This document shows, piece by piece, positions 7,583-13,411 of a stretch of 21,007 nt of DNA. The notes beneath the pieces are model-generated. The model saw only the letters and a list, made by a program, of their open reading frames with translations. It did not search any database and had not been told where the DNA came from. The position numbers and the translations under genes were made by a program. The first letter of the stretch is position 1; every line of letters starts with the position of its first letter. Source of the stretch: Candidatus Micrarchaeota archaeon (lineage in GTDB: Archaea; Micrarchaeota; Micrarchaeia; Anstonellales; Bilamarchaeaceae); the NCBI GenBank assembly GCA_018304385.1, contig JAGVWJ010000039.1, positions 1 through 21,007 on the forward strand. The letters run 5' to 3'.

Positions 7583-7624
7583 AATGAGAATCTAGAAGTA
7601 TAATATAGTGCAGGGGTGGCGGAG

Positions 7625-7673
7625 TCACATCAGTTTCGAGTTTCCGGTTTCGGGTCTCGAGAATGTGTCGCAA
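7625..7673 (+). other. tRNA intron 1, 49 nt, D-loop position 15/16, BHB-type
   Basis: Central helix GCGG (7619-7622) / TCGC (7668-7671); 3-nt bulges AG|T and AA|C; inner helix CACAT/ATGTG. Removal restores the D-loop AGCGGCCAA. Confidence 0.88.
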
Positions 7674-7728
7674 CGGCCAAACGCGTAAGGTTGAGGGCCT
7701 TATGGCTTAGTGCCTTCAAGTGTTCGAA

Positions 7729-7897
7729 ATTGCTGCTTTCTTAAAAAGAAAGCAGTGGCAAAGAAACACGATATTTCGTGTTTTTGGCTCAAGCCTTTTT
7801 TATATTAGAAAATATTTATTCTAAAAAGGCTTTGTCAAAGTGGCAAAAAAACTTTGACAAATCGTTACATCATAGATGTAAAGGCTTGAACGAGCAA
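7729..7897 (+). other. tRNA intron 2, about 169 nt, T-loop (59/60, or 57/58-58/59), relaxed BHB
   Basis: Removal restores TTCGAAT. Central helix TTCG (7723-7726) / CGAG (7891-7894), 5' bulge AAA, 3' bulge of 4 nt (CAAT); the exact junction can slide by 1-2 nt. Confidence 0.82.
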
Positions 7898-7963
7898 TCA
7901 CTTCCCCTGCACTTTATCCTAGTATTAGCAATAACCCTAAAATCATCCTAGCTCAAAACGCTT

Positions 7964-8155
7964 TTAGACTTTTTTCACGTTCTTTGCACGCAACCCGCGT
8001 TCGCTTGATTCAACCTCGTACTCTACAGCGTCGCCGGTCGCTAGTACTGCTCCACCTTCAACTGCCGAAGTGTGCACGTACACGTCCTTACCATCATCAC
8101 CTGTGATAAAACCAAAACTACGCGCGGTATTAAACATTTTTACTTTTCCTTTCAT
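7964..8155 (-). CDS. Cold-shock protein (CspA family)
   Basis: MKGKVKMFN...FGFI (RNP1), DVYVH (RNP2), VEYEV...RAKNV; GAGGGTGA ribosome-binding site upstream. Confidence 0.95.
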   Translation of the reverse strand: MKGKVKMFNTARSFGFITGDDGKDVYVHTSAVEGGAVLATGDAVEYEVESSERGLRAKNVKKV

Positions 8156-12925: not shown

Positions 12926-13411
12926 TTATTCAAAATTCGTCCTTGAAATTTTTATAAAGTGAATATCTTCTTTCTCAATATATGCAATTACTAGTTCTTT
13001 CCTTAGTTTTCCGGCAAATCCTATTGCTTGTTTTATATCTTTCATATTAGTTTGCCAGTCTCTTGGCACAACCTTCAAAACGTATTGCGTTCTATCCTCG
13101 CCAACGCGAATTCCTTTTTGATGGACACGAAAATATTCAGTAGTATCCATGCTGACTCTTGTAATATAACCGCGATCTCTTAGAAATTTTATTATTTTGT
13201 ATTTATCATCTGCAAGTGCATCACCTTTTCTTGCATTTTCCAGTATTTTATCTTTATCAAATTTTATTACTCCTTTATCTGCGAAATATGCAGCCTCTAG
13301 CAATGGTAATTTTGCTTTTCCGCCTTCTTCAATTCCTGCACCTAAACCAATCAATTTTGTAATAAGCTCACTATCACTGACCTCTAAATAATCTTCATAA
13401 AGTTTTATCAT
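12926..13411 (-). CDS. tRNA splicing endonuclease, non-catalytic structural (beta) subunit
   Basis: LPLLEAAY, YKIIKFLRDRGY, FRVxxKG, YVLKV, AGKLRKELVIAYI match the EndA fold. Catalytic Tyr is replaced by His (FRVH) and catalytic His by Arg (EDRTQY). AGGTG ribosome-binding site. Confidence 0.85.
   Translation of the reverse strand: MIKLYEDYLEVSDSELITKLIGLGAGIEEGGKAKLPLLEAAYFADKGVIKFDKDKILENARKGDALADDKYKIIKFLRDRGYITRVSMDTTEYFRVHQKGIRVGEDRTQYVLKVVPRDWQTNMKDIKQAIGFAGKLRKELVIAYIEKEDIHFIKISRTNFE

Follow-up and report, generated by a model that had tools for sequence, protein, structure and literature searches.

The window analysed here, a 21,007-nt stretch of DNA from a Candidatus Micrarchaeota archaeon (contig JAGVWJ010000039.1), contains a tRNA-Leu(GAG) gene whose T-loop is interrupted by 169 nt of stacked hairpins, within which one strand can pair with either of two partners. 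This architecture raises the question of whether the segment is an intron whose folding gates splicing, a mobile element, or an intron of another origin. The reading preferred here, to which a probability of about 0.75 is assigned, is that of a protein-spliced BHB-class intron built as a mosaic of repeat modules, in which insertion of one module (M2) with an accompanying duplication gave rise to the two pairings.

The tRNA-Leu(GAG) gene occupies positions 7610–7911 and is interrupted by a D-loop intron and a T-loop intron. Exon 1 (7610–7625, plus strand) includes the acceptor 5′ strand, the D-stem 5′ strand and the start of the D-loop, and is collinear with the ortholog (L053) in the congeneric species G002. 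The D-loop intron (7626–7673, plus strand; ~48–49 nt with a boundary ambiguous by 1 nt) is missing in that ortholog. Exon 2 (7674–7728, plus strand) supplies the rest of the D-arm, the anticodon arm (GAG), the variable arm, the T-stem 5′ strand, and T-loop positions 54–59; it is 95% identical to its counterpart in G002 (contig C107), is kept across the family, and is present in a single copy in this genome. The T-loop intron (7729–7897, plus strand; 169 nt) is followed by exon 3 (7898–7911, plus strand) with U60 of the T-loop, the T-stem 3′ strand, the acceptor 3′ strand and the discriminator A; CCA is not encoded.

In the unspliced window, no tRNA was seen by ARAGORN or Rfam. Joining of 7610–7625, 7674–7728 and 7898–7912 gave an 86-nt sequence identified by ARAGORN as tRNA-Leu(gag), with a normal cloverleaf, a long variable arm, and a 7-nt T-loop UUCGAAU. 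Thus, 7729–7897 is an intron that separates T-loop positions 59 and 60. Runs of A make its ends ambiguous by up to 2 nt; an independent definition of the ends comes from the intron-less ortholog of G024 (L026; also L057), in which exon 2 directly abuts exon 3. The T-loop is uninterrupted in Leu(GAG) of six genera (G024, G012, G013, G014, G018 and G019), and G004 has an intron at 53/54. Removal of the introns therefore restores a canonical tRNA with which the intron-less orthologs are collinear, as is characteristic of the BHB class.

Archaeal tRNA introns have been described as ‘less than 100 nt’ in length (PMC4033280). Fifteen credible T-loop introns of 39–202 nt, five of them long (155, 169, 177, 179, and 202 nt), were picked by eye from the noisy output of a heuristic search for T-arm and acceptor pairs in this genome, and this list is not a census. 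The intron studied is long as compared with the literature, but typical of a class in this genome. The whole assembly (G000; 1.53 Mb, 36.5% GC, 89% complete) gave 4 tRNAs with ARAGORN and 4 Rfam tRNA matches above threshold; hence almost all of its tRNA genes must be interrupted at non-canonical sites, hidden by multiple introns. The locus illustrates why nearly all tRNA genes of these genomes escape standard finders.

Folded alone, the intron has a minimum free energy of −58.6 kcal/mol, as compared with −29.9 ± 3.5 kcal/mol for dinucleotide shuffles (z −8.1), and none of the 200 shuffles folded as well. The four stems listed in the initial annotation, which had described a long T-loop intron of stacked hairpins, are all perfectly complementary, with mean pair probabilities of 0.83–0.98, and that description is borne out. 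The 5′-most hairpin, H1 (7732–7756, plus strand; P 0.96), is formed by GCUGCUUUCUU and AAGAAAGCAGU and has the form CTTTCTT...AAGAAAG; its homologue in the ‘CCATAGCCCC’ family of T-loop introns is the GCCCCTTTCTTT hairpin, and the GC-rich base of H1 includes two compensatory changes (alignment A5). In H2 (7759–7788, plus strand; P 0.98), the CAAAGAAAC strand is paired with the GTTTTTGG strand around a short ACGAT hairpin, and both motifs are conserved (alignments A5 and A2). The long hairpin M1 (7789–7832, plus strand) consists of the 5′ strand UCAAGCCUUUUU, an AT-rich inner arm, and an inner copy of the 3′ strand, AAAAAGGCUU. The last eight nucleotides of M1 (7825–7832, plus strand) are the left copy of a direct repeat, AAAGGCTT, that resembles a target-site duplication, and its right copy lies at 7880–7887 (plus strand). 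Between the copies lies M2 (7833–7879, plus strand), a 47-nt double-hairpin cassette with hairpin A at 7831–7861 (plus strand; loop UGGCAAAAAAA) and hairpin B at 7865–7881 (plus strand).

The right repeat copy and the adjoining 7888–7889 make up the outer partner for the 5′ strand of M1. Two 10-bp Watson–Crick pairings, 7791–7800/7823–7832 and 7789–7798/7880–7889, are thus available and mutually exclusive, as had been noted. The terminal 6-bp inverted repeat ATTGCT/AGCAAT, also pointed out earlier, is present in the sequence but is not predicted to form (P <0.03), because its arms compete, the 5′ arm being engaged in H1 and the 3′ arm in the T-loop helix. As a candidate intron-closing or BHB helix it was rejected on the same probability and on a geometry incompatible with BHB. 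The earlier statement that the intron lacks a C/D box and an open reading frame stands: neither a C/D box nor any Rfam family was found in it, at the gathering threshold or at E values up to 5, and the only open reading frames that overlap it are short and unsupported. A TATA-like sequence TTTTTATATT in the M1 loop was considered as an internal promoter or a mark of a split tRNA and was discarded, as it is not conserved in other M1 copies.

The T-arm sequence 7722–7726 (GUUCG) pairs with 7891–7895 (CGAGC) with a mean probability of 0.95 when the T-arm and intron are folded together, and the minimum-free-energy structure includes a sixth pair, 7721–7896. The intron 3′ strand CGAGCA (7891–7896, plus strand) is therefore paired with 7721–7726 (UGUUCG) of the T-arm and forms the central helix of the predicted splice motif. 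A 7-nt T-loop requires cuts at 7728|7729 and 7897|7898. The model places the 3′ site in a 3–4-nt bulge beside the T-stem; the 5′ site falls in a multiloop, within single-stranded AAAUU and 2 nt beyond the helix. The strict hBHBh′ motif, i.e. a 4-bp helix between two 3-nt bulges that are cut after their second base, was not found: as judged by hand enumeration in both topologies, any 3-4-3 arrangement leads to a T-loop of 6 or 8 nt, and a T-loop of 7 nt is reached only with a central helix of 5 bp or a bulge of 4 nt. The predicted fold has the relaxed hBH/BHL arrangement, with one bulge next to the central helix and the second site in a loop. From this model, a relaxed bulge-helix-loop substrate with the above cut sites may be inferred. 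Related introns share the end design [G/C]AAC-GA[A/G]C-A(A/G), and several of them form strict motifs. In the model, a single nucleotide separates the end of the outer M1 pairing from the central helix, on which this pairing could stack.

Enzymes suited to such a substrate are encoded in the genome. A 399-aa open reading frame on contig C28 matches ARMAN-2 EndA (4FZ2) over its full length (E 1e-129), and the ligase RtcB is encoded on contig C51. The EndA match accords with an assignment of the genome to Micrarchaeota. Endonucleases of the epsilon2 type act on strict BHB substrates as well as on relaxed BHL/hBH ones (PMC3239211; PMC12397907), ARMAN-2 EndA cleaves a 59/60 intron with a relaxed motif in vitro (PMC3239211, PMC12397907), and broad-specificity enzymes accept bulges of 1–4 nt (PMC3239211). 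In the proposed pathway, the epsilon2-type endonuclease would cut the pre-tRNA at 7728|7729 and 7897|7898, each cut being placed 2 nt 3′ of the 5-bp helix between T-arm bases 53–57 and CGAGC at the intron 3′ end. RtcB would then join the exons and probably circularise the intron. The hairpin modules would be passengers, tolerated presumably because each of them folds on itself, so that the long intron stays compact and the splice helix is left free. The window itself includes a second splicing endonuclease gene at 12926–13411 (minus strand), which encodes a 161-aa alpha-type-like paralog (E 2e-11 to 1A79, 2GJW, and 1R0V); together with the epsilon2-type gene on C28, this makes two such genes in one small genome.

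Comparison with other introns showed the segment to be pieced together from repeat modules specific to the lineage. The backbone (7729–7832 plus 7880–7897), which consists of H1, the CAAAGAAAC/GTTTTTGG helix and the long hairpin M1 (UCAAGCCUUUUU ... AAAAAGGCUUGA), aligns with the ‘CCATAGCCCC’ T-loop introns found in Leu(UAA) of this genome (contig C33), in Leu(CAA) of G001, and in a tRNA of G002. M1 forms the 3′ end of T-loop introns in many different tRNAs of G001 and G002, and likewise that of one D-loop intron there. In 12 insert-free copies from G000, G001 and G002, most of which are located in tRNA introns, stem P1 of M1 is 95.8% paired (alignment A2), with compensatory changes at 2 pairs (C-G/G-C and G-C/U-A/C-G) and a covariation score that was reached by none of 500 shuffles. 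This covariation relates to P1; the inner hairpin P2 is left out of the claim, since MAFFT gave no single register for it. At G000:C20:60102–60143 (L003), the M1 hairpin is reversed inside a D-loop intron, which argues that M1, too, spreads as DNA rather than acting as an orientation-dependent RNA signal.

The M2 cassette has the form TTGTCA-NNN-KGGCAAAAAAA-NNN-TGACAA, followed by a short spacer and TTGACA...TGTCAA. In an alignment of 15 copies (A3), pairing in its stems reaches 99.6%, compensatory changes are seen at 11 of 17 pairs, and the covariation score is 0.54 as compared with 0.15 in shuffles; the hairpin-loop sequence is conserved above these covarying stems. The covariance model built for M2 (R1) scores the copy in the window at E 5e-15 and gives 44 hits in this genome, which correspond to ~29 loci, as both strands of the palindromes are counted. 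In related genomes, 0–55 hits were obtained (41 in G002, 55 in G005, 8 in G001, and 9 in G004), and in the search, which covered 60 genomes, 13 of 40 genera were positive. The cassette occurs in both orientations, between genes as well as within open reading frames. The segment 7833–7879 is thus multicopy, dispersed and patchily distributed among relatives, as expected for a miniature mobile element. The initial annotation had suggested such an element for the intron; this is apt for M2, and for the modular intron as a whole only in a looser sense. Its expectation of related copies elsewhere was confirmed both by the M2 loci and by the occurrence of M1 and the backbone in other tRNA introns. 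No match to Y1_Tnp, the sole transposase family searched, was found in the 89%-complete assembly.

Open frames of 247–347 aa enclose approximately six M2 copies of this genome, which are apparently read through in frame (G000:C3:17742–17815, C24:55810–55883, C24:52845–52918, C29:43711–43788, C60:5573–5641, and C35:11019–11100). A 202-nt T-loop intron at G000:C20:26431–26494 (L075 282–345) corresponds to the 155-nt intron of Leu(UAA) on C33 plus a 47-nt M2-type cassette; the cassette is situated in the 3′ strand of H1, with no clear flanking repeat, and the stem is partly lost. The tRNA-Tyr gene of G002 (contig C67; L032) has a D-loop intron with an M1-like hairpin and an M2 cassette whose hairpin A is identical to that of the window, and the tRNA-Tyr gene of this genome (C59:33573) is without a D-loop intron.

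The manner in which M2 is joined to M1 accounts for the double pairing. Insert-free M1 copies read ...AAAAAGGCTTGAAC... or ...CTAAAAAGGCTTGAAC..., and the copy in the window reads ...AAAAAGGCTT(47 nt)AAAGGCTTGAAC... or, correspondingly, ...CTAAAAAGGCTT(47 nt)AAAGGCTTGAAC.... The paralogous M1 copies hence provide an exact empty-site picture with an 8-nt repeat. An orthologous empty site for this intron was found neither in relatives (no Leu(GAG) was detectable in G001) nor in metagenome contigs, where the exact 20-nt junction pattern gave two chance matches in unrelated coding regions. In all 12 insert-free copies, the M1 5′ strand has a single partner. Since the duplicated 8 nt offer it two, the original 12-bp stem is replaced by two overlapping 10-bp options, of which the inner one retains the five A-U pairs and the outer one the two outermost pairs, at which covariation is seen in the family. 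Judged from these alignments, the apparent switch is best regarded as a duplication scar.

Of 26 M2 copies, 27% are flanked by direct repeats of at least 7 nt; in cross-paired controls, the share is 5.5%. In roughly half of the copies, the flanking repeat is only 4–5 nt long. The repeat sequence differs between copies (AAAGCAT, AATGCGT, AAAGCGT, AAGGCTT, and AAACCTTT). The repeats thus behave like target-site duplications with what seems to be a loose AARGCNT preference; given this consensus, they could also be partly element-borne and not pure target duplications. M2 would have been inserted at the level of DNA, with duplication of its target, through some mobilising enzyme.

The 3′ domain composed of M1 and M2 (~104 nt) recurs with 84% identity in the T-loop intron of tRNA-Val(UAC) in G002, and the T-loop of the Val(UAC) ortholog in this genome (contig C38) is intact. 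Occurrence of the domain in non-orthologous tRNAs of two congeneric species indicates that intron sequence moves between tRNA genes. In this genome, the domain is found also in intergenic DNA on C59, ~190 nt upstream of tRNA-Tyr. At the latter site (G000:C59:33290–33400; L002 1464–1571), the sequence reads GTTTTGG, M1, M2 and CAATTGAAAAG, with no tRNA exons around. The insertion junction is identical in all three composites, and the simplest explanation is therefore a single insertion followed by spread of the composite.

The initial annotation had proposed a folding switch as one possibility. In this explanation, the exchange of the M1 5′ strand between the inner and outer partners would be selected, gating the splice motif and timing splicing. 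Forced folds of the two states differ by 0.3 kcal/mol in the whole precursor and by 2–3 kcal/mol in shorter contexts, so they are nearly isoenergetic; the end of the outer partner is 1 nt away from the central splice helix, and some version of both partners is retained in all three composites. However, the 8-nt duplication is sufficient to produce both partners, and the 12 aligned M1 copies, mostly from tRNA introns, have a single one. In the paralog that lies between genes on C59, decay has left the inner partner with 6 bp, whereas the outer partner has kept 10 bp with two compensatory changes relative to the window copy, so that of the two helices only the full or outer one is conserved by covariation, and not both as would be characteristic of a bistable RNA. 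Moreover, deletion of 7833–7887 in silico left the architecture unchanged, with a splice-helix probability of 0.98 as compared with 0.95 in the presence of the insert, and the helix is predicted to be equally probable in either state. Selection for a switch is thus very unlikely, and the proposal of gated splicing is not upheld. A different objection concerns the direction of change: the M1+M2 form could be ancestral, and M1-only copies could have arisen by deletion between the direct repeats, with no insertion at all. Recombination between the 8-nt repeats would indeed yield the exact ‘empty’ form, and the composite is found three times with the same junction. This course of events is nevertheless unlikely, as M2 occurs without M1 at ~29 loci here and at many in relatives, each such copy has a flanking repeat of its own and some lie inside long open frames, and M1 without M2 is known in at least 12 copies, once reversed.

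Strong folding could alternatively reflect a function of the excised intron as a stable, possibly circular, small RNA whose loops, such as GGCAAAAAAA, bind a protein or a target RNA. The z value of −8.1 and the conservation of the M2 loop over covarying stems are in keeping with this, and archaeal BHB introns are known to be circularised (PMC3326292). The probability of such a function is considered very low: the intron contains neither a C/D box nor a match to Rfam, an M1 copy within a D-loop intron is inverted, and the presence of the cassette in both orientations, between genes and in open reading frames fits selection at the level of the DNA or the element. Still less credence is given to the view that repeat insertions have disrupted the gene and that it is dead and not spliced. 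Failure of standard tRNA finders and the departure from strict BHB geometry speak for it, but the exons are intact and canonical, the gene is the only one for tRNA-Leu(GAG) found in this assembly, nearly all tRNA genes of the genome are equally hidden (4 ARAGORN calls in 1.53 Mb), the genome codes for an endonuclease of broad specificity, and the promoter-like region upstream of the gene is conserved with G002. The evidence is therefore best accommodated by a spliced mosaic intron enlarged by insertion of M2.

Cassettes of this kind may also constitute introns by themselves. In Leu(GAG) of G002, the same 59/60 site is occupied by a different intron of 98 nt, made up of a full M2 copy (E 3e-14) and, after it, a 42-nt mini-cassette. 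T-loop introns of 42 nt at 59/60 in two tRNAs of this genome and in Leu(GAG) of G006 match the M2 model end to end, with E values from 2e-5 to 1e-3. These whole introns look like solo mini-cassettes, which hints that insertion of a cassette may create an intron. The loci concerned are G000:C26:22393–22451 (L082 44–102), G000:C20 (L083 52–110), and a G006 locus (L024 1398–1459). It is tentatively suggested that mobile double-hairpin cassettes are a DNA-level route for both the birth and the enlargement of tRNA introns in Micrarchaeota, a generalisation held with less than even confidence. Birth might then proceed, again speculatively, by landing of a cassette in a T-loop or an existing intron, the insertion becoming the intron. 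The cassette hairpins and the T-loop UUCR would perhaps supply the motif cleavable by the broad-specificity epsilon2 endonuclease.

The introns at 59/60 in ARMAN-2 (Candidatus Micrarchaeum acidiphilum) are the closest known counterpart with respect to enzyme type, T-loop position and relaxed motif (PMC3239211; PMC3488258; PMC12397907), and many tRNA genes are disrupted in that organism, too. However, the 59/60 intron tested in ARMAN-2 is 13 nt long, as compared with 169 nt and four or five repeat modules here, and the central helix is predicted here to have 5 bp instead of 4. Transposition of introns in Thermoproteales, as summarised in PMC4090602, is similar in that near-identical introns occur in non-orthologous tRNAs of different identity and are presumed to spread at the DNA level by a mechanism given there as unknown. 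The present case differs in phylum and endonuclease type, in that the moving unit is a sub-intron module (the M1+M2 3′ domain or M2 alone), and in that modules are not confined to tRNA genes but occur elsewhere too, in both orientations and also inside open reading frames. For tRNA introns of Asgard archaea, a 2026 preprint states that “how they arrive remains open” (10.64898/2026.10.13.758758), and no description of hairpin cassettes in archaeal tRNA introns was found in a literature search.

M2 shares with the bacterial palindromic repeats (REP/BIME/REPIN, the RPE of Rickettsia, and pneumococcal BOX) a short, gene-less, multicopy hairpin structure with covarying stems, a patchy distribution in relatives, and the tolerance shown to it within non-coding RNA and, in some cases, within the reading frame of proteins. 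It differs from them in that no RAYT/Y1 transposase was found in the assembly and in that M2 is flanked by direct repeats of 5–9 nt. With the preferred reading, the locus would be a clean sequence-level example of an intron grown by insertion of a small mobile hairpin cassette, and would exemplify both the movement of intron modules between non-orthologous tRNA genes within one genus and the tolerance of a presumably endonuclease-spliced intron for 169 nt of stacked passenger hairpins. It also cautions that what looks like an RNA switch in a repeat-rich genome may be the scar of a duplication.

Two further features lie near the T-loop intron. The D-loop intron of the gene (7626–7673) contains a CTCGAG-type palindrome and resembles, at ~86% similarity, the one found in the D-loop of another Leu isoacceptor in G002 (contig C69); homologous or similar D-loop introns are present in G009, in other Leu tRNAs, and in G015, and it is a second mobile intron within tRNA-Leu(GAG). 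Downstream, the tRNA gene is adjoined on the opposite strand by a gene (7964–8155, minus strand) for a 63-aa cold-shock-domain protein (Pfam CSD, E 1e-19).
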